DNA of 39,828 nt from Dehalococcoidia bacterium. Lineage in GTDB: Bacteria > Chloroflexota > Dehalococcoidia > UBA2247 > RBG-13-53-26. Both the position numbers and the translations under genes were made by a program. The notes beneath the pieces are model-generated. The model searched no databases. It saw nothing but the letters and a program-made list of their open reading frames with translations, and was not told the DNA's origin. How positions within the stretch are numbered: position 1 is the stretch's first letter; the number at the start of each line of letters is the position of its first letter. Positions 7,936 through 37,736 of the stretch are shown piece after piece. Where the stretch lies: positions 1 through 39,828 of the forward strand of contig JBGOWL010000001.1 in assembly GCA_041478585.1 (NCBI GenBank). The letters are read 5' to 3'.

Positions 7936-7964
7936 TACTCATTGTCAAATTAGTGGTGTGCGTT

Positions 7965-7993: not shown

Positions 7994-8035
7994 CAGGGAT
8001 CGATTCAGGCACAGCAATAATCCGGAGAATAGCTG

Positions 8036-8626: not shown

Positions 8627-8723
8627 TTTGGACGAGAGATGCATATGAGGCCAAATAGATGATCCATGTCTGACCATGTGGTGTAAGGCTTGCTTTTCAT
8701 AGGCTTATGCCTGCGGTGCCGAT

Positions 8724-9440: not shown

Positions 9441-9443
9441 CCA

Positions 9444-9977
9444 ATGGGAAGAGCCAAGGAACCACAACTGGTGAAGACCTTTGTGGGCATGCTTACGGCT
9501 CGGTTATCCCTCCTGCCCAAAGTAAACAGCTTGCTCCAGGAGAGATTGGGGCCGATTGATATCGAGAGTGACACACTGGACTTCAACTACACGCGGTACT
9601 ACGAGGAAGAGATGGGGCCGGGATTGAAGAGACGCTTTCTGGGATTTCATCATCTGGTACCTCCCGATAGACTGGTGGAGGTGAAGCTCTTCACTAACGA
9701 GTTGGAACAGATCCTCGCTGAAGAAGGAGAACGGCTGGTGAATCTGGACCCGGGATACCTGACCTCGGCCAAGGTGGTACTGGTCAGCACCAAGGATTAT
9801 GCGCATCGTCTCTATTTGAGCGGTGGAATATATGGTGAAGTCACGCTGGTCTATCAGGACAGGCGGTTCCAGATACTGCCGTGGACCTATCCTGACTATC
9901 GGAGTGAGGCATACCATGAATTCTTCAAGAAACTGCGGGCAGCGTATCTGGGGCAAATAGAGATCAAAGGTACTTGA
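9444..9977 (+). CDS. DUF4416-family protein
   Basis: 177 aa. FNYTRYYEEEMG and NLDPGYLTSAKVVLVSTKDYAHRLYL match the remembered DUF4416 pattern. It starts 3 nt after the upstream stop. Confidence 0.7.
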   Translation: MGRAKEPQLVKTFVGMLTARLSLLPKVNSLLQERLGPIDIESDTLDFNYTRYYEEEMGPGLKRRFLGFHHLVPPDRLVEVKLFTNELEQILAEEGERLVNLDPGYLTSAKVVLVSTKDYAHRLYLSGGIYGEVTLVYQDRRFQILPWTYPDYRSEAYHEFFKKLRAAYLGQIEIKGT

Positions 9978-23445: not shown

Positions 23446-25467
23446 TTACATATAGTAGTCGAAGTTCTTCTCGCTGCGGGACTTTCTACGTACACGGAAG
23501 ATGTGGGCTGGAACTACGAAGGGATTCAGTTCCACGTAGTTATGCGAACCATGCCACACGTAGCGGGCATCGGTCAGCAAGTCGTGAACCTGGTAGGGCT
23601 CACGGCCATTGAGTCCGAGATCATCAAGGGAGAGATCAGTCCATCCCGACTGCGTGTAACGAGGATCCAGATTCACCATGACGAGCACGATATTGGAGAA
23701 GTCCTTCGTGCGTTTACTGTAGCAGATGACCTGCTCGTTATCTGTGAGGTGGAAACTCAGGTTCCTATCGCTCTGGAGGGCAGGGTTCTCATGCCTGACA
23801 CGGTTGATTCTACCAACGAAATCCTTCAGACTGTCATGCCGTGAGATATCCCAGTGCTTTATCTCGTATTTCTCTGAATCTAGATATTCCTCACTCCCGG
23901 GCTCTCTGGCCTTGTTCTCACACAGTTCAAAGGCAGGACCGTAGATTCCGTAATTGGCTCCCAGGGTGGCTGCCAAAACTAGTCTTGCCATGAAAGCAGG
24001 CCTTCCACCAAGCTGAAGGTATTCAGTCAAGATATCGGGAGTATTTGGCCAGAGATTAGGACGATAGTATTCCCGCACCTCAGTCTGAGTAAGCTCTGTG
24101 AAGTATTGCGTTAGTTCCCACTTGATGTTACGCCAGGCGAAATAGGTATAGGACTGTGTGAAGCCGAGTTTGGCCAGTTGGTACATGACTTTGGGGCGTG
24201 TAAAAGACTCAGATAGAAAAATCACATCAGGGTATGATTCTCTGACTTGGGCAGTCAGCCATTCCCAGAAGTGGAATGGCTTGGTATGAGGGTTGTCAAC
24301 ACGGAAGATGCGAACACCTTGCTCAATCCAGAAGAAAACGATACTTTTCAGTTCCTCCCAAAGCGCTTGCCAATTCTTGATCTGGAAGTCAAGAGGGTAG
24401 ATGTCCTGATAATTCTTCGGTGGATTCTCTGCATATTGAACGGTACCGTCCGGACGCCAGCGGAACCATGCTGGATGTTCTTCCACGTAGGGATGATCGG
24501 GAGAGCAGTGAAATGCCAGATCTAAAGCGATCTCGATGCCATATTCTCGGGCTCTTGCCAATAGATGTCTGAAGTCGTCCAATGTACCGAGCTCTGGATG
24601 TACAGCCTTGTGACCCCCTTCTTTTGACCCAATTGCCCAGGGTGTGCCCGGATCATCAGGCCCTGCTACGGCTGCATTGTTCTGGCCTTTGCGATTTGTG
24701 CAGCCTATGGGATGTATCGGTGGGAGATAGAGCACATCAAAGCCCATCGAAGCCACATAAGGTAAGCGAGCTTCGCAGTCCTTGAGAGTGCCATGACGCC
24801 CCGGCTCAGTTGCACATGAACGTGGAAACATCTCATACCAACTGCTAAAGCTGGCCTTCTTGCGATCAACCATTACTTTGAGTTCTTTGGGATAGGTTAT
24901 GACGTACTCCTTATCGGGATATCTATTCATGAGGCGGGCGGTTGCAGCCGAGAGTGCCAGTGCTTTTTTTTTCTCGGCGTCTGCTATGTCATTGGATTCC
25001 AGAACATGTCCCCATCTTCGTAGCATCTCGGCATCAGCAGCGGGAGCACGCCGTGAGGCTTCATATAGGAGTCGAGCTCCTGCCAGGATATCTATCGATA
25101 TGTCCTGACCTGCCTCCGCTTTCTTGGATAGATCTGATTGCCATGAATGGAAACGATCAGTCCAAGCCATAATCGTGTACTCATAGCATGCGAGTTCAGT
25201 CACCTCAAAGGAACCCTGCCACCGATCGTTGCCCAGAGAGGTCATGGTGACTTCAGTCCATTGTGTGTCATTTTTCCTGCGATACAGAAGGAGCGCTGAT
25301 ATTGAATCGTGGCCATCGGCAAAAACGTCAGCCTCCACAAGTACCCTCTCTCCGATGACCCGCTTGATCGGGAAACGTCCACCGTCAATCTCAGGTGCTA
25401 CCCTCTCTATGACTACGCGTATTCTACCTTTCTGTTTCACCTCTGGTGAGGTATCTCCTTGCTTCAT
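23446..25467 (-). CDS. glgE: alpha-1,4-glucan:maltose-1-phosphate maltosyltransferase
   Basis: 673 aa. N-terminal IERVAPEIDGGRFPIKRVIGE (GlgE N-domain), FRVDNPHTKPFHFWEWL and LSESFTRP motifs. Confidence 0.9.
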   Translation of the reverse strand: MKQGDTSPEVKQKGRIRVVIERVAPEIDGGRFPIKRVIGERVLVEADVFADGHDSISALLLYRRKNDTQWTEVTMTSLGNDRWQGSFEVTELACYEYTIMAWTDRFHSWQSDLSKKAEAGQDISIDILAGARLLYEASRRAPAADAEMLRRWGHVLESNDIADAEKKKALALSAATARLMNRYPDKEYVITYPKELKVMVDRKKASFSSWYEMFPRSCATEPGRHGTLKDCEARLPYVASMGFDVLYLPPIHPIGCTNRKGQNNAAVAGPDDPGTPWAIGSKEGGHKAVHPELGTLDDFRHLLARAREYGIEIALDLAFHCSPDHPYVEEHPAWFRWRPDGTVQYAENPPKNYQDIYPLDFQIKNWQALWEELKSIVFFWIEQGVRIFRVDNPHTKPFHFWEWLTAQVRESYPDVIFLSESFTRPKVMYQLAKLGFTQSYTYFAWRNIKWELTQYFTELTQTEVREYYRPNLWPNTPDILTEYLQLGGRPAFMARLVLAATLGANYGIYGPAFELCENKAREPGSEEYLDSEKYEIKHWDISRHDSLKDFVGRINRVRHENPALQSDRNLSFHLTDNEQVICYSKRTKDFSNIVLVMVNLDPRYTQSGWTDLSLDDLGLNGREPYQVHDLLTDARYVWHGSHNYVELNPFVVPAHIFRVRRKSRSEKNFDYYM

Positions 25468-26001
25468 ATTGCTTCATACAGGCGCTGCTCATTCTCCGTC
25501 ATGGGCATCGTGCCAGTGGCGGTCGGCAAGGTGGCGGAGGCTCCGAAGGAATCTCTTGCTTTTCCTGTCCTTAACTTCTTTGTGCTGACACCGCGCCAGT
25601 TATCGAAAACGGCATTGAGCGGACTAAGGGATGGTGTGGTCATTCAAAGAGCATCCGTTGGGACGTTCTTGGGCCTGTAGAACGAATCAACAAGCCTGGG
25701 ATAGTGTTCAATGGCCGACATCTCAGACTTGCAACTCTAGCAAACAACTACTGTGACCGATAGCCACCTGTTCGTTTCAGACACTGCCGGATATTATAAC
25801 CTGTTCGGCTGCCTTATGACAATATGTTGTCAAATGTCCGCCGTGGGAGAATGATTCATGGTTTCTAGAACAATGTACGATACAATCTGCTGGGGATGGA
25901 AGCCGGGACACGAATTGAAGGATTGGAGTATGGAAGTGTGAAAGGATCAGAGTACTGTTTTGCTGAATTCTGCAAGCACCTGGTACTTCAATCCCTCCGG
26001 G

Positions 26002-26559
26002 CTATAGCTTTCCTTTCAGAGTCTCCTTCATTAGTATTCTACTGTAGTCCCAGAATTGTTGGCGCATACTTCTGAAATCGAGGGTGGTTACTGTGCTACC
26101 GAGGACTCCGAATGGAAGCATCTGAGGTATGAATCCCCTGGCGTATTTAAGCATCCACGTGCGGGGTTTCATACGGTAGCCTTTGTCAGTGCCTCTGCGA
26201 AGGTAGGCCATGTCTCCGGGTTTGTAGATGGCGGGTTCGAACTGGCCTTGCGTATAGCACCACATTTCTCCATCCAGCACGATGTCGTACACATCAGCCC
26301 AATACCGCCCTGAGTATCCTCCTGTAGGAATGGGTGTACCAAAGAAGATAAGATACTCCGACATTGAGCCGTAGAGTACAGTGAGCATGCCCATGGCACC
26401 GCCTGCGACGTTAAAGATCCATCTCCTCTTGCTCGGTATGCGGCCTGGGCATCGCTTATCCAGCGCATCGGAGATTGCTTCGAATTTCTCTTCCAGTGGC
26501 AAATCGAGGTTCTGCTTGCATGTCTCCTGCAATAGATCAGGATCAAAGATATATGCCAT
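26002..26559 (-). CDS. ERG2 / sigma-1 receptor family protein (bacterial homologue, no N-terminal TM)
   Basis: 185 aa, colinear with my recollection of human SIGMAR1 from about residue 55 to the end: WIFNVAGGAMGMLTVLYGSMSEYLIFFGT...GYSGRYWADVYDIVLDG...TWMLKYARGFIP versus [29 protein letters not shown]...GHSGRYWAEISDTIISG...TWMVEYGRGVIP. RBS GGGGAGAGG. Confidence 0.8.
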   Translation of the reverse strand: MAYIFDPDLLQETCKQNLDLPLEEKFEAISDALDKRCPGRIPSKRRWIFNVAGGAMGMLTVLYGSMSEYLIFFGTPIPTGGYSGRYWADVYDIVLDGEMWCYTQGQFEPAIYKPGDMAYLRRGTDKGYRMKPRTWMLKYARGFIPQMLPFGVLGSTVTTLDFRSMRQQFWDYSRILMKETLKGKL

Positions 26560-26845
26560 TACCTCTCCCCTTGCTGTTGGTCACTCTGAGATCTCTCGCT
26601 TGACATGAAAGTTCACGGTGTTGTTGCAGAATGACTGCTTGAGCATGGATGATATGCCTGTCGTGGCCTGCTGTCAAGGTTCTTCATGAGGGATTCGAAT
26701 TCTGTTTCTGGCTTCCTGTCAGATTGGAGCAAAAAACAGAGGCGCGGATGAAGAAGTCCTGGGCAATGGATACCCTAAATTGTCCCCAATTGCAGGAGGT
26801 GGTGTGTTATGGAAACACGGAGCCGTTACCTGGCTCAGGAAGCCA

Positions 26846-27793
26846 TTATCGGCCTCCTGAGCCAGGTACATGGGTTGTGTTGTCCACAGAAAGCCCGGCT
26901 GCTGCCAGGATATCTGGAACCACTTCTTCTTTGCCGATAGCCATTATGTGGACTCCGTCGCAGACTGAACTGTTTTTCAGCTCTGCGATCATCCGTCCAG
27001 CTATCTCAATGCCCTTGTTGAGCGCACCTCCTTTGGGTGCGCTGGCAAGCTCATCAATCAGATTCTTGGGGACGAAGATACCAGGCACATTCTCGGTCAT
27101 GTACTTTGCCATCCTGGCTGATACAAGCAGGACTATCCCTGCCAAAACCTTGACGCGGAATTGACGGGCATGGTTCATGAACTTACTAAAGTTATCCAGA
27201 TCATACACTGCCTGGGTTTGGAAGAATTCGGCGCCAGCCTCCACTTTCTTTTCGAATTTTATGAGCTGGGGTTCCAGCGGGTGTGCCTCAGGGGTGACGA
27301 TGGCCCCGGCACAAAACTGCACTGCGCCGTCAAGATCATTTCCTCCAAGGTCCTTGCCCGACTCCATATGATGCACTGCTCTAAGCAACTGGACTGAATC
27401 GAACTCGAAGACGTCTGCAGCGTGTTTATGATCGCCAACCACGATCGAATCCCCTGTAAGGCAAAGGACGTTTCTTATACCCCTGGTATATGCCAGGAGC
27501 AGTTCGGCTTGCAGAGCCATTTGATTACGGTCACGGCAGGTCATTTGAAGGATGGGCTCACCCCCCTGCTCTTTGATGTGCAGGCAGCCGCCGATTGAAG
27601 GAAAGCGCATTACTGAACTCTGGTGGTCGGTGACGTTTATAGCGTCAACTTTGTCTCTGAGGATGTCAATGTGGTGACACATCTTCTCGATGTTGGTTCC
27701 CTTTGGAGGGCCTATCTCACTGGTCACCACGAATTTGCCAGAGTTGAGAACTTCTTTGAAGCTTTGCCCAGTCATAGTCTGCTCCTCACTCAT
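26846..27793 (-). CDS. metF: methylenetetrahydrofolate reductase (acetogen-type MetF)
   Basis: 315 aa. FVVTSEIGPPKG, AINVTDHQ, LCLTGD and the TIM-barrel MTHFR layout. It overlaps metV by 4 nt. Confidence 0.9.
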   Translation of the reverse strand: MSEEQTMTGQSFKEVLNSGKFVVTSEIGPPKGTNIEKMCHHIDILRDKVDAINVTDHQSSVMRFPSIGGCLHIKEQGGEPILQMTCRDRNQMALQAELLLAYTRGIRNVLCLTGDSIVVGDHKHAADVFEFDSVQLLRAVHHMESGKDLGGNDLDGAVQFCAGAIVTPEAHPLEPQLIKFEKKVEAGAEFFQTQAVYDLDNFSKFMNHARQFRVKVLAGIVLLVSARMAKYMTENVPGIFVPKNLIDELASAPKGGALNKGIEIAGRMIAELKNSSVCDGVHIMAIGKEEVVPDILAAAGLSVDNTTHVPGSGGR

Positions 27794-28434
27794 GAGATTT
27801 TGATCATTCGTGGTCTAGGTATGACGTGTGAGTTCTTTGGAGGTTGATACTTCCGCATCACGTCGAGTCGACCCTGATTTTTCAAGCGCTCATAGATGAG
27901 AGTCCAAGCGCAATTCTTTGCCTTGTCAATTTCGCATTTGCCGTCATTGGTGCCGCCGCATGGGCCATTCAACAGGTGTTTGTGGCACATCGTAACGGGA
28001 CAGATGCCGGCAGTGAAGCCTAGAACACAATGGCCACACTGGGCACAAACCTCATGGAAATTGCCCGGATCCTCCTCGAGGCCAATGAACAGAGTATCCA
28101 ATGCCGGAATGACAGGCTTGTCGATGTACGAAGCTAGCTTGTGTACTCCCAGAGCGCAGCTCATGACCATGATACAATGCGCATTATGAATAGCACCATT
28201 GTTTTCCTTGAGAGATACAGAGGTCATCTCATCGCAGGCAATGGGAATTACGATCCAGCCAGTGACCATCTTGCCCAACACCTGGAGATGCTCCTTCATA
28301 TGCAAGACCTCTTCCCTACCTCCCGTCTTGGTCATAGTGGCACATGTACCACAACCAACCAGGTATATTCTGTCCATGCCGTCCAATTGCCGCTCAATCT
28401 CTTCAAGAGGCTTCTGTCTGGTAATAGATTTCAT
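27790..28434 (-). CDS. metV: MetV (MTHFR-associated Cys-rich zinc/Fe-S subunit, MTHFR_C domain)
   Basis: 214 aa. CAQCGHCVLGFTAGICPVTMCHKHLLNGPCGGTNDGKCEIDKAKNCAWTLIYERL matches the MTHFR C-terminal-like domain, and the gene is translationally coupled to metF. Confidence 0.8.
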   Translation of the reverse strand: MKSITRQKPLEEIERQLDGMDRIYLVGCGTCATMTKTGGREEVLHMKEHLQVLGKMVTGWIVIPIACDEMTSVSLKENNGAIHNAHCIMVMSCALGVHKLASYIDKPVIPALDTLFIGLEEDPGNFHEVCAQCGHCVLGFTAGICPVTMCHKHLLNGPCGGTNDGKCEIDKAKNCAWTLIYERLKNQGRLDVMRKYQPPKNSHVIPRPRMIKIS

Positions 28435-28474
28435 CCTAGCCCTCCAAATTGAACCATATGCCCCTCAATCGTTT

Positions 28475-31400
28475 TCATGTTTCCAAATCACATCTCAGAC
28501 AACGCTGGGCTTCCTGGCGGGCGCTTGCCTCTGAGAAGCTCAGCTCGATTTCCTTGAAGGAGTGTTTTCTTTCCTGAGCCGGGATTGTAGGAATCTCCTG
28601 CCGTGGGTGTGCTTCCCATGTTTCCTGCTCTTCAGGCAGGTTGACTGCAGCAGCAGTTCTCATTTTCAGATCGTATATCTCAACCCGCGAATCGTCGCCC
28701 TTGAGATATTTGTCGATAGAGATAGCCGCTCTTCTTCCAGCGGCGATGGCGTTGATGACCATGCCAGGGCCGGTGACGAAGTCGCCTCCAGCAAAGATGC
28801 CATTGACGTTTGTCGCCAGCGTATTATTGTTGACGGCCAATGTCTCCCAACGAGTACGTTCCAGAGCGCTGTTAGCCGGTAGAAAGGACAGGTCAGGAGC
28901 TTGGCCTACCGCAGCGATGACGGTATCAGCCTCAGCGAAGAATTCAGAGCCGTTAATAGGCATAGGCCGCCGACGTCCACTGCCGTCAGGTTCCCCCAAC
29001 CTCATGCGGATACATTGCAGGCCACCTGTTTTCCAGTTTTCAGTCACTATTCGGGTGGGACTGACCAGGAAGTTCAATTCAATCCCTTCAGCTACGGCTT
29101 CATCGTACTCTGCCTTGGTCACTGGCATCTCGTTCCGGGACCGCCTATAGTAGATTTGCACTTTCTCAGCACCAAGACGAAGAGCTGCCCGAGATGAGTC
29201 CAGTGCAACATTTCCACCACCGATGACTGCTACCCGGCGCCCCACGTTGACCTGCCTGCCGATCTTAATATCTCTCAGGAATCTCAACCCATAGTAAAGG
29301 CCTTCAATATCCTCTAGCTCCCCTGGTATCCCTATGCGCTGGCTTCTCTGAGCGCCGGCAGCAACAAACACGGCAGCAAATCCGTCCTTCTTGAGATCGT
29401 CTACGGTGAAATTCGCATTTATGGGCGAGTCGTATTTTATGTATACGCCGCGTTTGGCTATGTAGTCTATCTCTCTCTGAATCACCTCTTTGGGCAGGCG
29501 AAATTCGGGTATTGCCACTGACAACATACCTCCGCCTACAGGCAGTGCTTCAAAAACGGTCACCGGGTAGCCCATCTGTGCCATGAAGTAGGCGCAGCTC
29601 AACCCAGTGGGGCCAGCCCCGACAACGGCCACTCTTTGATTCTGGGTCTGAGGAAAAGGCTTGGGTTCGGGCAATTCCGCACTGTGCTCGAAATACCAAT
29701 CGGCCGCAAAACGCTTGAGCGCCCTGATGCTTACTGGATCGTCCAGTTCTCCGCGACGACATCGCATCTCACACGGGTGATGACAGATGCGACCGCAGAT
29801 GGCAGGGAAGGGATTTCGCTCCCTAATGGTATCGATGGCCTCTTCATATTCACTAGCAGTGATATGCGCTAGATACTTGGGGACGTTAGTGCCTACCGGG
29901 CAGGTATGCTGGCAAGGCGATATCATCAAAGCATCGCAGGCAGCAGCAGGGCATTTCTTGTCCTTGATATGGGCTTCATACTCATCGCGGAAGTAGTTGA
30001 TGGTGGAAAGCACTGGATTGGGACAGGTCTGGCCCAGGCCGCAGAGAGAGCATTCCTTGACGACCCTGGCTATGGCAAGCAATGTATCGAGATCTTCATC
30101 GCGGCCCTTGCCCTGGGTGATTCTGGTCAGTATCTCCAACATCTGCCTTGTTCCCAGCCGGCAGGGAGTACACTTTCCGCAGGATTCGTCCTGTGTGAAA
30201 CTGAGGAAATAGCGAGCCATTTCTACCATACAGGTCGTATCATCTAGGACCACCATGCCGCCGGAACCCATGATGGAGCCTACCTGGGCCAGCGTGTCGT
30301 ATTCCACAGGGAGGTCAATCAAATTGGCGGGGATACATCCCCCTGAAGGACCACCGGTTTGTACTGCTTTAAGCTGCTTGCCGCGAGGGATTCCACCCCC
30401 GATATCGTAGATTATGGTGGAAAGAGGAGTGCCCATAGGTACTTCAACCAAACCGCTGTTGGCGATCTTACCTGTAAGTGCAAAGACAGCTGTGCCCCTG
30501 CTCTTCTCGGTACCGAGACCAGCAAACGACTCACTGCCCCGGCTGATTATCACTGGAACGGTAGCCAGCGTTTTGACATTGTTGATTATCGTGGGCTTCC
30601 CATCCAAGCCTGACTGTGCTGGGAAGGGGGGCCGTGGACGTGGCATTCCCCGCCGGCTTTCGATGGATGCTATCAGTGCTGTCTCCTCTCCACAAACGAA
30701 GGCTCCGGCGCCCTCCTTAACATGTATGTTGAAATCGAAGCCGGAACCAAGAATATCCTTGCCGAGAAACTTTTTTTCTTGCGCTTGTTGCAGGGCAATT
30801 TGAAAACGTTTGACCGCCAAGGGATACTCGGCGCGGACATATATGTAACCTTCGCTGGCTCCAATGGCATATCCTGCAATGATCATTCCCTCGATAACGG
30901 CGTGGGGATCGGCCTCCAGGATGGATCGATCCATGAAGGCGCCTGGATCGCCTTCATCGGCATTGCAGATGAGGTACTTCTGCTGCGCAATGGCAGTCTG
31001 GCAGAACTCCCACTTACGCCATGTGGGGAAACCAGCGCCACCACGACCTCGGAGGCCGGACTTCTTGATCTCTTCAATTACTGTCTGAGGTGTCATCTCG
31101 AGCAGGGCTTTTTGTAGACCCTTGTAGCCATCTCGGACAATATAGTCATCCACTTTCTCAGGGTTGATGTGCCCACAATTGCGCAGGATGATCCGCTGCT
31201 GTTTGCTATAGAAGCTTATGTCGGAATATAGTGGTATAGCCTGATCTGTCACTGGGTCTCGGTAGAAGAGGCGCTCCACCGGCTTGTTATCGCGAAGATG
31301 AGATGTCGCTATCTCAGGAGCATCCTCAATATCAACGTGGGTATAGAAGATGCCGTCAGGCTCAATGACCACGTTAGGCCCCTGCTCACAGAAGCCATGG

Positions 31401-31537
31401 CAACCAGTGAAATCGACCCTGACATTTTTCAGGGCTAGTTTCCCTACATCTGCTTTGAGGGCTTCATATATGGCTTCAGAACCTGCTGAGGCACATCCTG
31501 TTCCCTGACAGACGAACACAGTGCGGTGCTTTGCCAT
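28475..31537 (-). CDS. NuoF-like (FMN/NADH, Fe-S) fused to a GltD-like NAD(P)H:FAD oxidoreductase
   Basis: 1020 aa. N-terminal thioredoxin-like 2Fe-2S (CQGTGC...GCHGFCEQGP); NuoF core (GLRGRGGAGFPTWRKW, NADEGDPGAF, ESCGKCTPCRLG, CGLGQT); GltD-type Fe-S linker (CQHTCPVGTNVP, ICHHPCEMRC); two Rossmann motifs (VAVVGAGPTGLSCA and VAVIGGGNVALD). Confidence 0.9.
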   Translation of the reverse strand: MAKHRTVFVCQGTGCASAGSEAIYEALKADVGKLALKNVRVDFTGCHGFCEQGPNVVIEPDGIFYTHVDIEDAPEIATSHLRDNKPVERLFYRDPVTDQAIPLYSDISFYSKQQRIILRNCGHINPEKVDDYIVRDGYKGLQKALLEMTPQTVIEEIKKSGLRGRGGAGFPTWRKWEFCQTAIAQQKYLICNADEGDPGAFMDRSILEADPHAVIEGMIIAGYAIGASEGYIYVRAEYPLAVKRFQIALQQAQEKKFLGKDILGSGFDFNIHVKEGAGAFVCGEETALIASIESRRGMPRPRPPFPAQSGLDGKPTIINNVKTLATVPVIISRGSESFAGLGTEKSRGTAVFALTGKIANSGLVEVPMGTPLSTIIYDIGGGIPRGKQLKAVQTGGPSGGCIPANLIDLPVEYDTLAQVGSIMGSGGMVVLDDTTCMVEMARYFLSFTQDESCGKCTPCRLGTRQMLEILTRITQGKGRDEDLDTLLAIARVVKECSLCGLGQTCPNPVLSTINYFRDEYEAHIKDKKCPAAACDALMISPCQHTCPVGTNVPKYLAHITASEYEEAIDTIRERNPFPAICGRICHHPCEMRCRRGELDDPVSIRALKRFAADWYFEHSAELPEPKPFPQTQNQRVAVVGAGPTGLSCAYFMAQMGYPVTVFEALPVGGGMLSVAIPEFRLPKEVIQREIDYIAKRGVYIKYDSPINANFTVDDLKKDGFAAVFVAAGAQRSQRIGIPGELEDIEGLYYGLRFLRDIKIGRQVNVGRRVAVIGGGNVALDSSRAALRLGAEKVQIYYRRSRNEMPVTKAEYDEAVAEGIELNFLVSPTRIVTENWKTGGLQCIRMRLGEPDGSGRRRPMPINGSEFFAEADTVIAAVGQAPDLSFLPANSALERTRWETLAVNNNTLATNVNGIFAGGDFVTGPGMVINAIAAGRRAAISIDKYLKGDDSRVEIYDLKMRTAAAVNLPEEQETWEAHPRQEIPTIPAQERKHSFKEIELSFSEASARQEAQRCLRCDLET

Positions 31538-31543
31538 ATGATC

Positions 31544-32038
31544 TTACCCCCTAGCGTTAGTGCTGTCTCCGAAAATCTGGGACACTTTCTTAGGATTTAG
31601 ATGACCGTAGGTTTGCTTGCCGATAACCATGTTAGGCGCCATTGCACAGACTCCAATGCAGGCAACGGTCTCCAGGGTGTACTCCATGTCGAGGGTGGTT
31701 TGGCCTTCCTCTATGCCAAGGTGCTGTTTCGCCAGTTTCAGAATTGTCTTGCCACCCCGCACGTGGCAGGCTGTACCACGGCATACTCTAACGATCCTCT
31801 TTCCCCTCGGCTCGGTGTAAAGCTGTGAGTAGAAAGTGATGACCCCTTGTATTTGGGAAGGGAACATGTTGAGGGCTCTGGCAATAGGTTCGATAGCTTC
31901 AGGAGGTATGAATCCGGACTCATTCTGGATTTCCTGAAGAATTGGAATCAATGGCCATTTCCGGGCACGGTAGTGCTCTATGATCTGGTCTACGAGTGTC
32001 AGGTCACACTTGGTGTTTTTCTCATTCATGGGAGTCAA
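31544..32038 (-). CDS. NuoE/HndA-like [2Fe-2S] subunit
   Basis: 164 aa. ALIPILQ-type segment (PLIPILQEIQNESGFIP), CRGTAC and CIGVCAMAP cluster ligands. It overlaps the upstream gene by 17 nt, or 8 nt if the start is ATG 32029. Confidence 0.85.
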   Translation of the reverse strand: MTPMNEKNTKCDLTLVDQIIEHYRARKWPLIPILQEIQNESGFIPPEAIEPIARALNMFPSQIQGVITFYSQLYTEPRGKRIVRVCRGTACHVRGGKTILKLAKQHLGIEEGQTTLDMEYTLETVACIGVCAMAPNMVIGKQTYGHLNPKKVSQIFGDSTNARG

Positions 32039-34721
32039 TCCTTTCCAGTCTCACACTACAGGCTTTCAGAGAAGGTGTTTTGGATTGTGGGTCCAGATCA
32101 ATGTCGAACAGGGCATTGACGGGACTCTCTGGGAAAGCGATGGGCATGAAAAGCATTCCTTCTGTTACAGTGTCAGTAATCCTGGCTTTGGCACTGATCT
32201 GGCCAGACGGTGAGACAATCTTGACCCTGTCACCCTCATTGATTTCCAGATGGGATGCATCTATGTTAGAAATGTCCACAGGTGCTTCCGGCAAGAACCT
32301 GTTCAGTCGCGAGGCCCTTGAGGTTCTGGATCCGCTTCCGAATTGATACAGGCTGGTGCCTGTGATGAGGGTGAGAGGATATCCATCCTTTGACAACTCT
32401 CTGTTCGGGACATAGTGAACTGGTGAAAAGCGGCCAAATCCGCTAGGGAACTGACCTTTGTAGAGGCGTCTAGCCCCCGGGGGAGGATTGCCGAACTCAG
32501 CTCGGTAGATTCCTTTCATCTCTGAGTCAGTGTAGCCTGTGCCCTGATAGAAGGGGACAAGCTCTTCGATCTCATCCATGATGTGTTCAAGAGATGAATA
32601 GGGCATTGGATAGCCCATCCTTTTCGCCAACTGAAGGATTATTCCCCAATCAGGTAGGCTCTGGCCGACAGGGTCAATGACCTTATGCAATCTTTGGACC
32701 CTTCCTTCAAAGTTGGTGAAGGTACCCTCTTTCTCAGCGAAACTTGCGGCTGGGAGTACAACAGTGGCCAGCCTGGCTGTTTCAGTAAGGAACATGTCCT
32801 GCACCACGAGGAAATGGAGTGATGCCAGGGCTTCCCTGACCAGGGCTAAATGTGGGAAGCTCGCCGCTGGATTTTCCCCCACAACGTACATTGCTTTGAT
32901 TCTTCCCTCTCTGGCTTGTTCGATCATTTCCAGGGCTGTCAGGCCAGCGCCGGTCGGGTCACATTTGCCCCAAAGATCTGCAAATCTCTTCAAAGTCTGG
33001 GGATCATCCACGAATTGATATCCGGGAAGGAAAGAGGGCAGGACACCCATGTCGCATGCTCCTTGCCCATTGCTATCTCCTTGTAGTGCATAGATGCCGC
33101 CTGAACCGTGCCCGACGTTGCCGGTAAGCATGGCCAGATTTGCCAGTGCCATTACACCGTCTGTTCCAGTGATGTGTTGAGTGACTCCTTTGCCAAAAAC
33201 AATGGAAGCCTGATTTGCTGCGGCAAAGATCTGAGCAGCACTCCGCAGTTCCTGACTTGAAACGCCGGTTATTTCCTCTGCAAGCTCCAGGGTATATGTC
33301 TCTAGACCCTGACGAAATGCCTCGAAGTTGTCTGTCCGTCTGGTCACGAACTCCTCATCGAGAAGGCTTTCAGTGATTATTAACCTTGCCAAGCCATTCA
33401 GGAGAGCTACATCGGTGCTTACTTTCGGCTTCAGCCAGAGATGGGCAAATGCAGTGAGTTTCGTTCTCCGAGGATCCACAAGAAGTAGCTTGGCGCCTCG
33501 ATATCTAACTGCGCGTTTTATGGCATATCCGACCAAGGGGGCCGAAGAGGTAGGATCAGCTCCTACGACCAATATGGCGTCTGATTGTTCCAGATTCTCA
33601 AGAGAGCCGGTCGTTCCGGGCAAGCCAAGGTTCCACCCCAAGCCTTTGCGACTGGCAGCGCTGTACAACCGACTGCTATTGTCGACGTTATTGGTGCCCA
33701 GCACACATCGAGCAAACCTCTGCAGGAGGTAGTTTTCCTCATTGGTGCACTTGGGTGAACCAAGGACAGCCAGGCTTTCAGGGCCGTCAGCTTCCCTGAT
33801 GCGGCCCAGTTCGGTGGCGACAAGATCCCAAGCCTCTTCCCAGGATGATCCCTTGAAGTCGCCATTGACCTTGATCAAAGGCTGGGTCAGTCTTTCGGAG
33901 CTGTGCACAAAATCGTAGCCATAGCTTCCCCTGACACAAAGCGTACCACGGTTAACCGGGCTGTCTTTATCTGGCCTGCAGCGCACTATTGTGTTGTCTT
34001 TGACTTCAAGGGAGATACCACAACCACAGCCACAGAAGGGACAGATGGTTGTTACTGTTCTGTTAGTAGTTCCCGCGTACGGCCTTTCCTTTTCCATTAG
34101 AGCGCCAGTGGGGCAGAATGCCACACAGGTACCACAGAAGGTGCAATCGGACTTCTCCAGGGCACTGTCATTCAGTGTTGCTGGCCTGGAGGTAAATCCG
34201 CGTCGGATGTAGTCAATAACACCCTCAACCACAAGTTCATGGTCAGCCCTGATACACTTGGCGCAGAGGATGCATTTGCTCAGATCTCTTTCAAGAAACG
34301 GATTGACTTCTTTGATGAGAGAAGGTTGAGGGATTTTCTGGAATTCTACCAGGCCGATGCCGCTTTCCGAAGCAATTCGACGCAGTTCACACCGGTTACC
34401 CTTGTCACACACCAGGCAAGAGTCAGGATGACTGGCCAGCATGAGTTTGACTATAATCTTGCGTCTCTCCAGTACCCTTGCGGACTCGGTGTTGATTACC
34501 ATTCCTGAAGCTATAGGCGTGACGCAAGAGGCCATTAGAGCACCAGAGCGTTCATCTTCTACTAGACAAATGCGACATGCACCGAATGGAGCCAAATGAG
34601 AGTCGTTGCAGAGTGTGGGGATATTTACACCAGACTCATCCGCCAGTTCGAGCACGGTCATTCCTGGGTGACCGCTTACTTCGCGTCCGTTAAGCGTAAT
34701 CGTGATTGTTTCCAATAGCAA
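32022..34721 (-). CDS. formate-dehydrogenase-alpha/NuoG-like molybdopterin-fold subunit lacking the FDH catalytic residues
   Basis: 899 aa. N-terminal 2Fe-2S, HPDSCLVCDKGNRC, two ferredoxin-type 4Fe-4S (CILCAKC, CTFCGTCVAFCP), MopB 4Fe-4S (CPFCGCGC), then a colinear FdhF-like body. The Sec/Cys-His site reads RLYSAAS and the Arg333 equivalent is Gln. TTG start (34721 or 34715) after GGAGGGGAG. Confidence 0.85.
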   Translation of the reverse strand: MLLETITITLNGREVSGHPGMTVLELADESGVNIPTLCNDSHLAPFGACRICLVEDERSGALMASCVTPIASGMVINTESARVLERRKIIVKLMLASHPDSCLVCDKGNRCELRRIASESGIGLVEFQKIPQPSLIKEVNPFLERDLSKCILCAKCIRADHELVVEGVIDYIRRGFTSRPATLNDSALEKSDCTFCGTCVAFCPTGALMEKERPYAGTTNRTVTTICPFCGCGCGISLEVKDNTIVRCRPDKDSPVNRGTLCVRGSYGYDFVHSSERLTQPLIKVNGDFKGSSWEEAWDLVATELGRIREADGPESLAVLGSPKCTNEENYLLQRFARCVLGTNNVDNSSRLYSAASRKGLGWNLGLPGTTGSLENLEQSDAILVVGADPTSSAPLVGYAIKRAVRYRGAKLLLVDPRRTKLTAFAHLWLKPKVSTDVALLNGLARLIITESLLDEEFVTRRTDNFEAFRQGLETYTLELAEEITGVSSQELRSAAQIFAAANQASIVFGKGVTQHITGTDGVMALANLAMLTGNVGHGSGGIYALQGDSNGQGACDMGVLPSFLPGYQFVDDPQTLKRFADLWGKCDPTGAGLTALEMIEQAREGRIKAMYVVGENPAASFPHLALVREALASLHFLVVQDMFLTETARLATVVLPAASFAEKEGTFTNFEGRVQRLHKVIDPVGQSLPDWGIILQLAKRMGYPMPYSSLEHIMDEIEELVPFYQGTGYTDSEMKGIYRAEFGNPPPGARRLYKGQFPSGFGRFSPVHYVPNRELSKDGYPLTLITGTSLYQFGSGSRTSRASRLNRFLPEAPVDISNIDASHLEINEGDRVKIVSPSGQISAKARITDTVTEGMLFMPIAFPESPVNALFDIDLDPQSKTPSLKACSVRLERIDSHE

Positions 34722-34848
34722 CTCCCCTCCAGGACTGAGGTGTCAGTGTTGCTCAGAACCCTAGTACTTGCAGAATCTGCGAATCGGACCCCTGGCATGA
34801 AGCCCAAGCGCTGACAGGTCGGCAGACACGATGACCTGTGGATATTCT

Positions 34849-35634
34849 CTACGCGGCGACATTATGGACAAAGCGCTGTCCCTGACTCACAGTTCTGATT
34901 GCATCCAGAAGCTCTGAGCCGGCGCTTCTCTTTGGTACAAAGCCGATTGCTCCCGCCTGAGTACTAGCCAAGACGTTCTCCTCATCGTCATATTGACTCA
35001 GCATCAGAACCTTGGCAGTGTCCCACTGTGAGCGTATGCGTTTGGTGGCCTCCAGGCCATTCATCACCGGCATAACTATGTCCATCAACACTACGTCAGG
35101 AGAAAGGTCGATGGTCTTCTGGAGTGCTTCCTGGCCGTTGACTGCCTCACCTACTACCTGCATGTCCCTCTGGAGAGCCAACAGCGCTCTGATTCCTTCT
35201 CTGATTATGGCGTGGTCATCCACTACCAGCACTTTGATCCTTCTGGTCGATCTATCGAGCAGTTTCTCCACTCGGGATACCAGTGATAGTGGTTCGAGTG
35301 GCTTAACCAGATAGTCGTCAGCCTCAAGATGCAGTCCTTCGTCTTTGCTCCACCCTTTTGTCAGTTGCTTCTCGGGGGATGCATCAATGACGATGATCGG
35401 CAGATCGCCGAATTGTGGCGCCTGTCTGAACCACTGATGCAGCCTGAAGGCCTCTCCTCTTGGCATCAAGGTGCCGAGTATGACAATATCGGGCCTTTCT
35501 GACCAGGCCATTTCCTGCGCTTGAGCTCCAGTGCTCGCAAGAGTCACTTTATGCCTGGATTTCAGAGTCGAGCGCAAACGATCCGCAAAACCGGAGTCAT
35601 CATCGACAATCAAGATCTTCGCTTTGGTGTCCAT
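34849..35634 (-). CDS. dual-receiver response regulator without an output domain (REC1 lacks the phospho-Asp)
   Basis: I place the start at ATG 35634 (GGAGGG RBS 5 nt upstream) rather than the tracked 35754. REC1 is ILIVDDD...PDIVILGTLMP...YLVKP, with Gly where the acceptor Asp is expected. REC2 is VLVVDDH...PDVVLMDIVMP, canonical NarL-type. There is no HTH. Confidence 0.8.
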   Translation of the reverse strand: MDTKAKILIVDDDSGFADRLRSTLKSRHKVTLASTGAQAQEMAWSERPDIVILGTLMPRGEAFRLHQWFRQAPQFGDLPIIVIDASPEKQLTKGWSKDEGLHLEADDYLVKPLEPLSLVSRVEKLLDRSTRRIKVLVVDDHAIIREGIRALLALQRDMQVVGEAVNGQEALQKTIDLSPDVVLMDIVMPVMNGLEATKRIRSQWDTAKVLMLSQYDDEENVLASTQAGAIGFVPKRSAGSELLDAIRTVSQGQRFVHNVAA

Positions 35635-35914
35635 TTTCACCCTCCTTCTACAGGTCTTCCTCTTGAGCCGAACAGCTCGGCGTGAGGTACAGTTCAAGGA
35701 TAGGCGAGTTCTCCTACACCAGAAAGGGGGGTTCAAAGCGGACCGAGACCGCAAAACCCCTTGGATTTCCGCAGATAACCCCTTGGTTTGGTCCTGGCAA
35801 ACCCCCGGTGCCTTCGTCTCCTATGCTCTGTGGAATGGAAGTGGGAATGAATGAGGGATCGCAAATGCCAGGGGTGGGTGTGGGATGTGCAGCGAAACGA
35901 GACGGTGCGTGGGT

Positions 35915-36568
35915 TCAGACCGTTATGATGCCCTTGCGCAGAGCGTATTTGACCAGGTCAACCCGATTGTGTATGTCAAGCTTGTCCATGAGGTTTGTCT
36001 TGTAGCCCTCGACGGTCTTGGGACTGATAACCAGGATCTCTGCGATCTCTTGAGTAGTGTGACCCTCTGCCAGAAGTTTGAGGACCTCCCTTTCACGGCC
36101 TGTTAGCTGATCATAGGGGTCACGTCTTTCCTGCAGGTTTCCGCCGGTCTGGACGTTTTCTACCAGCAACTTGGCTACTGAAGGTGATAGGAAGGAGTCT
36201 CCCCGGTAGATGGAACGGATGCCAACGACGAGCTCGGATGAGGCGGCTGTCTTGCTGATGAAACCATGAGCCCCCGCCTCGATAACCGGGAAAACATACT
36301 CCTTGTCAGCGTACTGGGTGAGAGCCAATACCCTTGTTCCCGGGAACTGCTTTCTTATCCGTCTTGTTGTCTCCATGCCTCCCAGCAAAGGCATGGCAAT
36401 ATCCATGATGACCACATCAGGTGCCAGTTCTTTGACCTTCTCCATAGCTTCCTGACCGTTGGCTGCCTCACCGACTACTTCCATGTCGGCTGCCAAGCTC
36501 AGAAGAGCGCAAATACCGTCTCGTACTATGGTATGGTCATCTACCACCAGTATTCTTATCTTCTTCAT
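35915..36568 (-). CDS. NarL/FixJ-family response regulator (REC + LuxR HTH)
   Basis: ILVVDDH, PDVVIMDIAMP, and a C-terminal LTGREREVLKLLAEGHTTQEIAEILVISPKTVEGYKTNLMDKL. Confidence 0.9.
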   Translation of the reverse strand: MKKIRILVVDDHTIVRDGICALLSLAADMEVVGEAANGQEAMEKVKELAPDVVIMDIAMPLLGGMETTRRIRKQFPGTRVLALTQYADKEYVFPVIEAGAHGFISKTAASSELVVGIRSIYRGDSFLSPSVAKLLVENVQTGGNLQERRDPYDQLTGREREVLKLLAEGHTTQEIAEILVISPKTVEGYKTNLMDKLDIHNRVDLVKYALRKGIITV

Positions 36569-37736
36569 CAGCCATACTCCGAATCACAGGAACTCTGGCC
36601 GTCACCACAGTACCTTCTCCAGGCTGAGACTTGATGGAGCATGCACCACCAAGAAGGGACACTCGTTCCTTCATGCTGAACACGCCTCGGCCTCTGCCGC
36701 TTTCCTCTATTCCTGTGATCTTCGAAACGTCAAACCCCCTACCATCATCGGTGATGCGCAATAGCAGGTCATTAGCTCTGCATTCCATAGCTATGGTGAC
36801 ATTCTTTGCCTGGGAGTGCCTGGCTATATTGCCTATCGCCCCTTGAGCAAACCGGAAGAGCCCTGCTTCCACCTCTGGTGGCAAGGAACCAAAGTTGCCC
36901 CTGCATTCCAGGGACGTGTTGATTCCCAGGTGAGCAAGAGTGGTCTCAGCATACTGCCTGATGGCTGGTACCAGCCCCAGTGTATCCAGGAGGGTGGGCC
37001 GAAGCTCTCTTATTATCCTGCTGACCTCAGTAGCTACCTGGACGGCAAGGGAGTGCGCTTTTCTCAGTCTCGATTTGAATTCTTCATCCCGAGTGTTGGA
37101 CATGTCAGCCATGTCAACCAATGCTTGCAGGTTGAGAGCCAAGCCAGACAGTGTTTGGCTTGTTTCATCATGCAGTTCACGAGATAATCTGCTTCGTGCT
37201 TCCTCTTGAGCCATCAAGACCTGGCGTGCCAACTGACGATACCGCTCCCTACCTTTTGCCAGCCGCTCGTACAGCTTCGCCTGCTCAATGGCCACACCCA
37301 GCTGGTCGCCTATCGAGTGCAGGAGGTGCATATCATCCTTGGTGAAACGATGAGGCAAGTGACTAGCTACATTGATCACGCCCCAGACAGCCTCCTTTGA
37401 CCTCAGGGGGACGCTGATGAATGCTCTCAGATCCTCTGCCTGCACCAAATCTGGATAGGCGGCGAGGGGCTCTGTCGAAATATCCTCTACCAGGATGGAT
37501 TTGCTGCTGTGGGCTACCCTCCCGGCGACTCCCTCACCCAGCTTGAGGCGTATTTCGTCAGCGAATTTGGGTGACAACCCGCGGTAGACCCGATAGGACA
37601 GAGTCTTAGTCTCTTCGTCTAGGAGCAGGATGCCTCCGATGCTGCCATCCATGATGCTGAGTACGTTATCGAGGGCAACTTCAAGAATGGCGTCGAGGTC
37701 CCACAGCCCGCTGACTGCCGCGGAGACACGACTCAA
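36537..37736 (-). CDS. GAF-domain sensor histidine kinase (HisKA_3/HATPase_c)
   Basis: GAF region (GGILLLDEE...GEGVAGRV), H-box ELHDETSQTLSGL, N/G boxes (NIARHSQA, DDGRGF, GRGVFSMKER). No TM segment. TTG start; the frame is open a further ~45 codons upstream without an ATG. Confidence 0.85.
   Translation of the reverse strand: MSRVSAAVSGLWDLDAILEVALDNVLSIMDGSIGGILLLDEETKTLSYRVYRGLSPKFADEIRLKLGEGVAGRVAHSSKSILVEDISTEPLAAYPDLVQAEDLRAFISVPLRSKEAVWGVINVASHLPHRFTKDDMHLLHSIGDQLGVAIEQAKLYERLAKGRERYRQLARQVLMAQEEARSRLSRELHDETSQTLSGLALNLQALVDMADMSNTRDEEFKSRLRKAHSLAVQVATEVSRIIRELRPTLLDTLGLVPAIRQYAETTLAHLGINTSLECRGNFGSLPPEVEAGLFRFAQGAIGNIARHSQAKNVTIAMECRANDLLLRITDDGRGFDVSKITGIEESGRGRGVFSMKERVSLLGGACSIKSQPGEGTVVTARVPVIRSMADEEDKNTGGR

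Follow-up and report, generated by a model that had tools for sequence, protein, structure and literature searches.

A methylene-tetrahydrofolate reductase gene pair in one block with a Bfu-type electron-input module in Chloroflexota and other phyla: a candidate fifth reductase type

Described reductases and related electron modules

Methylene-tetrahydrofolate reductases (MTHFRs) of the MetVF kind have no NAD(P)H site of their own, and the type II enzymes, when purified, make no use of NAD(P)H (PMC8760232, PMC9430772). Only ferredoxin or dyes served these purified enzymes as donors, which leads to a negative ATP balance, and the electron donor of MetVF, together with energy conservation at the MTHFR step, is an acknowledged open problem of Wood-Ljungdahl bioenergetics (PMC8760232). 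In the reverse direction, the syntrophic oxidation of acetate and methyl groups has its thermodynamic bottleneck at this step (PMC6295475). Four MTHFR types are recognised, and this scheme was still used in August 2026 (PMC8760232, PMC9430772, PMC13564433). Here, a stretch of 39,828 nt from a Dehalococcoidia bacterium (assembly GCA_041478585.1, complete contig JBGOWL010000001.1, positions 1 to 39,828; the whole stretch is called the window) was analysed. In the window, metV and metF lie in one block with a NuoE-like gene, a NuoF-GltD fusion gene and a gene for a formate dehydrogenase (FDH)-like protein with replaced catalytic residues, referred to as pseudo-FDH. The five genes probably form one functional unit, i.e., a MetVF reductase fed by an NAD(P)H input module of Bfu origin, which would be a fifth MTHFR type. 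The arrangement matches none of the four recognised types, in agreement with the first-pass annotation, made from the sequence letters, which had not recognised it as a characterised MTHFR complex.

In working mode, the closest analogue, above all for a form of the block that lacks GltD, is the type III enzyme RnfC2-MetVF of Acetobacterium woodii, in which an FMN/NADH Fe-S subunit of the Complex1_51K family makes MetVF NADH-dependent (PMC8760232). The block in the window differs from it by a three-subunit input module, Bfu-specific sites and an extra NADP(H)/FAD module. Neither RnfC2 nor a MetV-like domain fused to an NADH subunit was found in the window, and RnfC models were weak in the NuoF half of the fusion (TIGR01945, 40 vs 246 bits). 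In the type IV enzyme HdrABC-MvhD-MetVF of Moorella thermoacetica and Sporomusa ovata, MetVF is joined to a large NADH-oxidising flavin/Fe-S module, and coupling to an unknown second acceptor was proposed (PMC8760232, PMC9430772). No Hdr/MvhD genes (CCG, FlpD and HdrA-type domains) were found in the window or in the neighbour tables of related loci; the module of the window is of the Bfu family and unrelated to the HdrA module of type IV. Precedents for its parts exist, as RnfC2 of type III belongs to the Pfam family of NuoF and a GltD-type NAD(P)H domain occurs in Moorella HdrA (PMC8760232, PMC9430772). By analogy, we propose the block as a third added-module solution after RnfC2 and HdrABC-MvhD.

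The trio of pseudo-FDH, NuoE and NuoF-GltD has the same four modules as the electron-bifurcating transhydrogenases Stn/NfnABC (S. ovata StnABC, 8oh5; C. saccharolyticus NfnABC, 9bov; T. sibiricus, 9n5u), with likeness scores of 675-687 bits for the HydB-type subunit and 345-409 bits for the GltD/NfnB-like module. Their FDH/NuoG-like multi-cluster subunit is, as in the window, without a working pterin site. However, GltD stands in Stn/NfnABC at the N-terminus of the FDH-like (BfuA) subunit and feeds A7-A6-A3-A2-A1, whereas in the window it stands at the C-terminus of the NuoF-type protein and thus at the opposite end of the electron path, and a [2Fe-2S] domain opens the FDH-like subunit, unlike the GltD-first subunit of Stn/NfnABC. 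Further differences are that GltD replaces the B3/B4 domain in the window, that the linkage to metVF is obligatory, and that a GltD-less sister form exists.

The NAD+-dependent FDHs FdsABG (R. capsulatus 6tg9, C. necator, 9wxb) are also built as the trio is, with an alpha subunit of a NuoG-like N-terminus plus Mo domain, a NuoF-like beta subunit and a NuoE-like gamma subunit. In contrast to these FDHs, the window protein has its catalytic Lys, Cys, His and Arg replaced, and the NuoF is of HydB/Bfu type with an N-terminal four-Cys domain and a His/Cys B2 site, which the non-bifurcating FdsB does not have (PMC9304861). In Bfu Types 2 and 3 (NiFe-Bfu, Wor-Bfu and the predicted Por-Bfu), a BfuBC core and a non-catalytic, conducting BfuA are combined with separate third-substrate subunits (PMC9304861), a role that MetVF would fill here. 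The window differs in that B3/B4 is absent or replaced; moreover, methylene-tetrahydrofolate (methylene-THF, -200 mV) is more positive than NAD, and the usual Bfu energetics are inapplicable. The Bfu survey lists many third substrates with no mention of MTHFR, MetF or methylene-THF (PMC9304861).

The cluster was mentioned in passing once before. Frank et al. (2016) noted in one sentence fdhA-nuoE-nuoF-metV-metF (GeneID 2635450610-14) in the uncultured syntroph unFirm_1 and read it as a link between the first and the last step via a real FDH; the main text of that paper reports metaproteomic detection of fdhA, nuoE, nuoF and also the second pair of metVF genes (PMC5080403). No other prior mention was found in open-access papers and preprints. 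The novelty suggested by the first-pass annotation is limited: the cluster is uncharacterised, but its gene arrangement had been noticed. In a study of Dehalobacteriia, a Stn-like cluster beside a Mo-FDH was described with "significance unclear" (PMC10327494), and it may correspond to the loci with a real FDH treated below as group B. Papers on Chloroflexi, Actinobacteria, NPL-UPA2, haloalkaline and thermophilic syntrophs, Contubernalis and Tepidanaerobacter described Hdr-type or plain MetVF, not this cluster.

Organisation and conservation of the block

Five open reading frames (ORFs) run on the minus strand from 34721 down to 26846. Their coordinates, strand and junctions were exactly those annotated before, and every domain named at that time was recovered by Pfam and NCBIfam profile searches of the window proteins, by which the domains were assigned. 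The genes and their parts are as follows.

32022-34721, minus strand: pseudo-FDH (FDH-like) gene, 899 aa, first gene of the block
34077-34721, minus strand: N-terminal Fe-S wire of the pseudo-FDH (BfuA-like), aa 1-215, with Pfam Fer2_4, NADH-G_4Fe-4S_3, Fer4_Nqo3 and Fer4
32025-34076, minus strand: molybdopterin-oxidoreductase-like body of the pseudo-FDH, aa 216-899, by alignment to FdsA 9wxb_B
31544-32038, minus strand: NuoE/HydC/BfuC-type subunit, 164 aa (PF01257 at 3.1e-48; NF005722 above cutoff)
28475-31537, minus strand: NuoF-GltD fusion gene (Complex1_51K, NADH_4Fe-4S, Fer4_20 and Pyr_redox_2)
29924-31537, minus strand: NuoF/HydB/BfuB-type half of the fusion, aa 1-538 (780 bits to BfuB 7t2r_B over residues 6-538)
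28478-29923, minus strand: GltD/NfnB-type half of the fusion, aa 539-1020 (Pfam Fer4_20 and Pyr_redox_2; junction mapping)
27790-28434, minus strand: MetV, Fe-S/Zn subunit of a MetVF-type methylene-THF reductase, 214 aa (PF12225 at 2.9e-35)
26846-27793, minus strand: MetF, flavin- and folate-binding catalytic subunit, 315 aa (PF02219 at 1.4e-39)

Over its full length, the pseudo-FDH matched Fer2_4, NADH-G_4Fe-4S_3, Fer4, Molybdop_Fe4S4, Molybdopterin and Molydop_binding, and the Pfam match of NuoE was 2Fe-2S_thioredx. The junctions are -17, +6, +40 and -4 nt in gene order: the NuoE start overlaps the pseudo-FDH stop by 17 nt, metV begins 40 nt past the NuoF-GltD gene, and the metF start overlaps the metV stop by 4 nt. 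Shine-Dalgarno-like motifs stand ahead of four of the five genes. The block is set off by a 127-nt gap between the pseudo-FDH gene and an upstream response-regulator gene, and by a 286-nt gap 3' of metF that contains a T-run as well as the next gene's 11/12 promoter-like site. From this spacing, we infer that the five genes are co-transcribed. A promoter/terminator consensus scan of 25400-36000 gave counts not above those of shuffled sequence and was unusable as single-transcript evidence.

Conservation was followed in two directions. In the forward scan, one genome per species was taken and all window proteins were searched by tblastn against every locus; loci of the form with GltD were counted where the fusion was at least 65% identical to that of the window and enough flanking DNA was present. 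NuoE stood upstream of the fusion in 31/31 loci, and MetV directly after it in 28/29, with a median gap of 44 nt between the high-scoring segment pairs (HSPs) of fusion and MetV; a complete pseudo-FDH was present in 22/24 loci and MetF in 23/24. One locus (L031) was counted as having MetV and MetF, as both genes are present and the fusion HSP is merely split. In the reverse search, with MetV as query against metagenome contigs, the fusion lay directly ahead of all 17 MetV relatives of at least 52% identity that had informative upstream DNA, and relatives of 43% identity or less stood in other gene contexts. Among the 17 is a deep-branching lineage with a fusion only 54-57% identical to that of the window, the same gene order and a dead FDH.

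The closest relatives of the window are metagenome-assembled genomes (MAGs) of Chloroflexota/Dehalococcoidia. At 65-89% identity, the block was found in Chloroflexota (mainly Dehalococcoidia), in a Dethiobacteria MAG, in Bacillota MAGs and in soda-lake Syntrophomonadaceae MAGs. The order metF-metV-nuoF/gltD-nuoE-fdhA-like, which had been put forward as a feature to trace in other genomes, is thus conserved in both search directions and in several phyla; it recurs in dozens of species-level genomes, far beyond chance.

Three genes of a two-component system lie directly upstream of the pseudo-FDH gene in the window.

36537-37736, minus strand: GAF-HisKA_3 histidine kinase (Pfam)
35915-36568, minus strand: LuxR-type response regulator (Pfam)
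34849-35754, minus strand: double-receiver response regulator, 301 aa, no output domain (Pfam)

The same kinase and two regulators directly precede the pseudo-FDH gene in 21/22 loci of the form with GltD, including those of the Dethiobacteria, Bacillota and Syntrophomonadaceae MAGs. As they are co-inherited, the conserved unit is one of eight genes that reaches ~37736; the five genes first annotated as the unit were all conserved, but its upstream limit had been drawn too short by the three genes at 34849-37736. The two-component system presumably regulates the block. The spread across phyla at the identities given above, with the same upstream two-component system, suggests that the block moves as a unit. 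In the GltD-less form, these three genes are absent and a convergent GAF-GGDEF gene lies downstream instead.

No other C1 genes were found in the window by domain scans, and the block lies outside any Wood-Ljungdahl cluster; the rest of the window carries fatty-acid/polyketide-type, glycogen/trehalose, transporter and regulatory genes. Pathway-level clustering alone is a less likely cause of the adjacency, given that the block lies apart from other C1 genes and that housekeeping genes surround the GltD-less loci.

The GltD-less lineage comprises three Bacillota MAGs (L050, L086 and L087) and the cultured Thermodesulfitimonas autotrophica (L085, with the NuoF WP_123928834.1). Their block consists of a pseudo-FDH of 891-905 aa, NuoE, a NuoF of 542-551 aa that ends right after the B2 site, MetV and MetF, and no other Wood-Ljungdahl genes are nearby. 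A one-off assembly artefact was considered for this form and rejected on account of its intact ORFs and of at least 13 protein clusters with that length. The GltD partner noted in the first-pass annotation is therefore present in the window but dispensable in a sister lineage. Since its FDH is dead and it has only one pyridine-nucleotide site, the GltD-less trio cannot work as a transhydrogenase, and a second substrate is lacking unless MetVF serves as acceptor. The presence of this version in a cultured organism makes the donor question directly testable.

Two further variants are informative. In a complete Dehalococcoidales genome (L001, CP070645.1), the locus has no MetF, only a 57% fragment remains of MetV, and the Fe-S N-terminus is gone from the FDH-like gene, while NuoE and the fusion are intact beside genes of CO dehydrogenase/acetyl-CoA synthase (CODH/ACS). 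This co-loss suggests that the wire serves MetVF. The FDH-like remnant at this locus is a 698-aa ORF (7421-9517, plus strand) with a DUF3786-like N-terminus and a remnant Mo-domain, split in two by the gene caller; it lies directly after acsE in the CODH/ACS cluster and is followed by the intact NuoE and NuoF-GltD genes. In the second variant, group B (L030, L034, L035, L046 and L047; e.g., L047 9516-16096 of Deltaproteobacteria CP070652.1), NuoE and a more distant NuoF-GltD fusion are followed by a genuine Cys/Sec FDH with an intact catalytic set, and metVF is nearby in 3/5 loci. Group B probably represents the ancestral state. By its residues, its enzyme would be an FDH that has sites for both NAD(H) and NADP(H) but lacks the B3/B4 ferredoxin arm.

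Residues of the five subunits

The pseudo-FDH passes the NCBIfam FdhA equivalog cutoff (TIGR01591, 723.8 vs 666.25 bits), and its best structural-sequence matches are FdsABG, with 583 bits to FdsA structures. However, alignment to FdsA 9wxb_B placed R264 at the pterin-bridging Lys, Y353 (nt 33663-33665) at the Mo/W-ligand Cys/Sec, S354 at the adjoining His and Q547 (nt 33081-33083) at the catalytic Arg. In the residue table of the 32 loci with the gene order of the window, His and Arg are absent from all 32 and the Mo-ligand Cys is kept in only 2; the replacements vary by lineage, with S/N/G/Y/L at one site and Q/E/H/D/L/P/I at another. The catalytic residues are likewise lost in 4/4 GltD-less loci and in 6/6 loci of the deep-branching lineage, among them one locus with a deletion at this position. 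The full set of Cys/Sec, His and Arg occurred in 0/120 further database homologues, ~111 of which have Tyr at the old Cys position and ~118 Gln at the old Arg position. FDHs in other arrangements kept Lys, Cys or Sec, His and Arg in 23/23 cases. The label of a pseudo-formate-dehydrogenase, given at first sight of the window, thus holds for the orthologous loci and the 120 homologues as well.

The Fe-S ligands of the same protein are retained as follows.

C38/49/52/66: [2Fe-2S] cluster A1
C102/105/111: His/Cys [4Fe-4S] cluster
C150/153/156 and C193/196/199/203: two ferredoxin-type [4Fe-4S] sites
C227/230/234/262: A5 [4Fe-4S] site, retained

The Cys residues of the N-terminal wire are 100% conserved in the loci with GltD, in the 4 GltD-less loci and in the deep-branching lineage. 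The Cys ligands of the five clusters A1-A5 were kept in every locus, the sole exception being a Ser at the non-ligand C232. In the wire, NuoE, the Bfu core and MetV, the Fe-S ligands are essentially invariant down to ~55% identity, and the Mo-domain is the fastest-evolving segment of the block, with 58% mean identity to the window vs 72-80% for MetV, MetF and the NuoF half. Since the catalytic residues are lost and variable while the Fe-S ligands are invariant, the pseudo-FDH is, as judged from its residues, a catalytically dead protein kept as a conductor or scaffold. Its likeness to real FDHs (583 bits) is far greater than its likeness to the FDH-like part of StnC/NfnA (270-282 bits), which points to a loss of FDH function independent of that in StnC/NfnA.

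In public records, such dead proteins are named 'formate dehydrogenase subunit alpha' or 'molybdopterin-dependent oxidoreductase', and the NCBIfam FdhA model passes them. The formate-oxidation potential read from this gene in many Chloroflexota and Bacillota MAGs is probably overstated and needs revisiting.

In NuoE and the fusion, the sites below were located.

NuoE C86, C91, C127 and C131: [2Fe-2S] cluster C1, invariant in 34-35 loci with GltD and in 4 GltD-less loci
Fusion C10/15/46/50: N-terminal thioredoxin-like domain of the NuoF half with four Cys (B5 site), aligned with 7t2r_B, invariant in 38 loci
Fusion C453/456/459/499: [4Fe-4S] site B1 of the NuoF half
Fusion C436, T474, H523, C529 and C534: Bfu-specific B2/Zn site of the NuoF half
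Fusion aa 638-647: FAD motif GxGxxG of the GltD half, conserved
Fusion aa 771-801: NADP(H)-type GxGxxA with YRRSR in the GltD half, conserved as GxGxxA/YRR(S/T)R
Fusion, eight Cys including the C-terminal C1013/C1016: two [4Fe-4S] sites of the GltD half, conserved

Over its residues 6-538, the fusion can be aligned end to end with B subunits of bifurcating enzymes that have been characterised by structure, i.e., 780 bits to BfuB of the bifurcating NiFe-hydrogenase NiFe-Bfu (7t2r_B), 732 bits to HydB (7q4v_B), 687 bits to NfnB (9bov_B) and 677 bits to StnB (8oh5_B). The FMN/NADH site has GRGGAGFPT and NADEGDPGAFMDR, the latter invariant in 34/34 loci, and the DPGAFMDR signature is present and essentially invariant. 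The B2/Zn-site residues are invariant in 38 loci save one Ser in the form with GltD and one Trp in the GltD-less form, and in the deep-branching lineage too. In BfuB of A. mobile, this site is formed by C438, C476, H525, C531 and C536, the second position being Cys or Thr in the family, and the His is absent in non-bifurcating homologues; the B2/Zn set, the N-terminal four-Cys domain and DPGAFMDR separate bifurcating BfuB from homologues of the NuoF/FdsB/HoxF type (PMC9304861).

The marks of the Bfu family were accordingly found in the FMN/NADH site with B1, the B2/Zn site, the N-terminal four-Cys domain, the BfuC cluster C1 and the BfuA clusters A1-A4(5), but the C-terminal B3/B4 ferredoxin-like domain is missing by junction mapping of the fusion. 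In the fusion, HydB homology stops at aa ~540, which is residue 540 of ~597 in HydB, and homology to NfnA/StnC begins at aa 539 (NfnA ~102); in the GltD-less NuoF, the B3/B4 position is empty. In HydABC and NfnABC, ferredoxin receives the low-potential electrons from the B3/B4 domain, and bifurcation is lost when this domain is deleted (PMC11829005). On this residue evidence, the NuoE/NuoF pair is a genuine core of Bfu (HydBC) type in which a putative NADP(H)/FAD module of GltD type has replaced B3/B4. Because this defining feature was looked for and is lacking, the fusion should not be filed as an ordinary Bfu/Stn member. By bit scores and diagnostic residues, the generic 'Nuo' partners of the first-pass annotation are instead a rearranged member of the known Bfu/Stn/NfnABC family. 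The cofactor inventory described there as typical of bifurcating enzymes needs correction too, as the ferredoxin arm is missing and GltD stands in its place; therefore, ferredoxin-linked bifurcation cannot be assumed. A motif of the GxGxxA/YRR(S/T)R type was tied to NADP(H) by the Stn authors (PMC7483475), and the GltD half is presumably specific for NADP(H).

MetV and MetF represent a core of the MetVF type, as in MTHFR types II-IV: metV (PF12225) and metF (PF02219) are adjacent, and MetF falls outside the NAD(P)H-type equivalog, scoring far under its cutoff (TIGR00676, 84.7 vs 293.7 bits). MetV has 12 invariant Cys, and MetF is the most conserved gene of the block with 80% mean identity. Among solved structures, there were none for MetV and only distantly related type I enzymes for MetF.

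A second, divergent gene of the MTHFR family, 26-34% identical to the window MetF and without a MetV partner, adjoins the block in the following loci.

GltD-less form, L085 3715-4617, L086 3226-4182 and L087 997-1965, all minus strand: divergently transcribed
Deep-branching lineage, L097, L101, L102 and L105 at ~1-690, plus strand: immediately upstream, same strand

Proposed function, rival explanations and neighbouring genes

In the proposed unit, NADH would reduce the FMN of the NuoF half, with the NuoE [2Fe-2S] cluster in support. Since MetVF itself lacks an NAD(P)H site, the electrons would have to come from the NuoF half; they would pass from B1 to A1 and the further clusters of the five-cluster wire of the dead FDH, and then via MetV to the MetF flavin and methylene-THF. 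MetV, with two [4Fe-4S] clusters and Zn, is predicted to hand the electrons to MetF, the flavin of which would reduce methylene-THF or oxidise methyl-THF. The minimal chemistry, as expected for the GltD-less form, would be NADH + methylene-THF -> NAD+ + methyl-THF. This step from -320 to -200 mV is exergonic (PMC8760232). The sequences show the gene content, the intact cofactor sites, the dead FDH site, the domain topology and the synteny or co-loss; from these we infer, as parts of the model, a physical complex, its electron path and stoichiometry, and the direction in which it runs.

The enzyme with GltD would have three hydride sites, for NAD(H), NADP(H) and methylene-THF. A second branch may run from the Bfu hub over the cluster of NuoE and then both clusters of GltD, ending at FAD and NADP(H). 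Most plausibly, this form links the reductase to the NADP pool, either as a second donor site or by coupling, and a conservative reading would be a reductase that draws on both NADH and NADPH. It is rather unlikely, though worth stating, that the form with GltD is a ferredoxin-independent bifurcating or confurcating enzyme with the reaction 2 NADH + methylene-THF + NADP+ <-> 2 NAD+ + methyl-THF + NADPH. In that case, NADH electrons would be split at the FMN/[4Fe-4S]/[2Fe-2S] hub of Bfu type between a methylene-THF branch (~-200 mV) and a NADP+ branch, and in reverse NADPH would help to drive the otherwise endergonic oxidation of methyl-THF. The cellular NADP couple lies at ~-370 mV and is more reducing than the NAD couple, so such coupling would be thermodynamically sensible. 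The cellular NAD couple lies at ~-280 mV (PMC9304861). If the coupled reaction were true, the free energy of the MTHFR step would be conserved as NADPH in the forward direction, which would explain the energy of this step in acetogen-like organisms and how acetate- or methyl-oxidising syntrophs pass methyl-THF, and the enzyme would be the first of Bfu type with a pyridine nucleotide in place of ferredoxin.

The strongest rival to a single reductase unit, and a minor but real possibility, is that one transcript encodes two enzymes, i.e., a type II MetVF with ferredoxin or an unknown donor, and a rearranged Stn/NfnABC-like transhydrogenase that balances NADH and NADPH for the methyl branch, in the way of Stn in S. 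ovata. The first-pass annotation had left this rival out of account. The module inventory of the trio, equal to that of Stn/NfnABC, and the NADP(H)-type motifs conserved in the GltD half agree with this. Without B3/B4, however, the Stn reaction of NADH, reduced ferredoxin and NADP+ would have to proceed without the canonical ferredoxin site (PMC11829005), and a plain NADH:NADP+ transhydrogenase needs no 899-aa wire of five clusters, yet the ligands are invariant. The GltD-less lineage has one pyridine-nucleotide site and still keeps the block of pseudo-FDH, NuoE, NuoF and MetVF. Stn is also common in organisms without the Wood-Ljungdahl pathway (Table 1, PMC7483475), whereas the fusion clade essentially always adjoins metVF. 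A working NAD(P)-linked FDH, co-expressed as the first reductive step of the methyl branch with the last one, is very improbable and was rejected on its catalytic residues, even though the FdhA cutoff, the FdsA scores, the database names and the interpretation of the 2016 paper (PMC5080403) agree with FDH and group B pairs an intact FDH with the same type of fusion. Against it stand the loss of His and Arg throughout the orthologous, GltD-less and deep-lineage loci and the lack of any intact homologue, set beside the complete sets of FDHs in other arrangements, as well as the lineage-dependent replacements, the rapid evolution of the Mo-domain, and the comparable Stn domain that has no FDH activity (PMC7483475).

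Improbable, though less so than a working FDH, is a new third-substrate site in the pseudo-FDH, either a Tyr/Ser pterin site or a dock for ferredoxin or flavodoxin, which would make a bifurcating enzyme of four partners or one with an unknown substrate, MetVF being one partner. The majority states Tyr and Gln could mean purifying selection rather than decay, and the A4/A5 branch towards the old active site keeps all its ligands. Elsewhere, these positions change without loss of the cluster, to V, F, H, W, T, S or a deletion at the one and to E, H, D, L, P, I, A or T at the other, and we know of no Mo/W-bis-pyranopterin guanine dinucleotide enzyme with a Tyr ligand. The homologous A2-A4-A5 branch is conserved in NfnABC and was deemed a non-functional remnant without pterin by the depositors (PMC11829005). 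Several observations weigh against the single MetVF unit itself. In S. ovata, stnABC lies directly downstream of metVF, and Stn was purified as an independent heterotrimer without MetVF (PMC7483475). The Dehalococcoidales locus with intact NuoE and fusion but no MetF indicates that the pair can have a role independent of MetVF, and in group B the adjacency to metVF may predate the loss of FDH and have been inherited from an ancestral pathway cluster. Among 10 long representatives with N-terminal extensions, all were NuoE-NuoF fusions, and no natural MetV-NuoF or MetV-FDH fusions were found. As the canonical ferredoxin arm is missing, the known bifurcation mechanism is not simply transferable. 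In the sole proteome available, that of unFirm_1, Table S1 gives a value for metF only (2 peptides) and dashes for the other four genes (PMC5080403). The reductase with a Bfu-derived input module is still considered the probable reading. The block is a widespread candidate donor module with a defined subunit list and clear predictions, and it would add to the Bfu family an architecture that has an NADP(H) flavoprotein in place of the ferredoxin arm.

In a 331-kb Chloroflexota contig (L002, 14917-19516, plus strand), the block is followed by genes for a small [2Fe-2S] ferredoxin, a RACo-type corrinoid activator, a B12-binding protein, a URO-D/MtaA-like methyltransferase and a pterin-binding methyltransferase. 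These neighbours hint that the reductase may run in the methyl-oxidising direction there.

NuoF-GltD fusions ~45-60% identical and followed only by a short Fe-S protein like the NuoG N-terminus were found in eight loci (L036-L038, L040-L042, L044 and L076) of Anaerolineales, Thermoplasmata, Bathyarchaeia and Deltaproteobacteria MAGs, without Mo-domain and without metVF. By gene content, they are a putative further uncharacterised Bfu-derived architecture that extends into Archaea.

Elsewhere in the window, a compact cluster at 754-7935 (minus strand) encodes a phosphopantetheinyl transferase, two SDR-type reductases, a FabA-like dehydratase, a ketoacyl synthase and two amine-oxidase/phytoene-desaturase-like flavoproteins. 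In its predicted functions, it resembles a pathway of polyunsaturated or modified lipids rather than housekeeping fatty-acid synthesis. Directly downstream of metF, a 185-aa protein of the ERG2/sigma-1-receptor family (PF04622, E = 1.3e-58) is encoded at 26002-26559 (minus strand) behind its own strong promoter-like site at 26677-26649. The family is best known from eukaryotic sterol isomerases and receptors. The gene also occurs at L003 14874-15431 and L004 5140-5697, with 82% identity in a related MAG.

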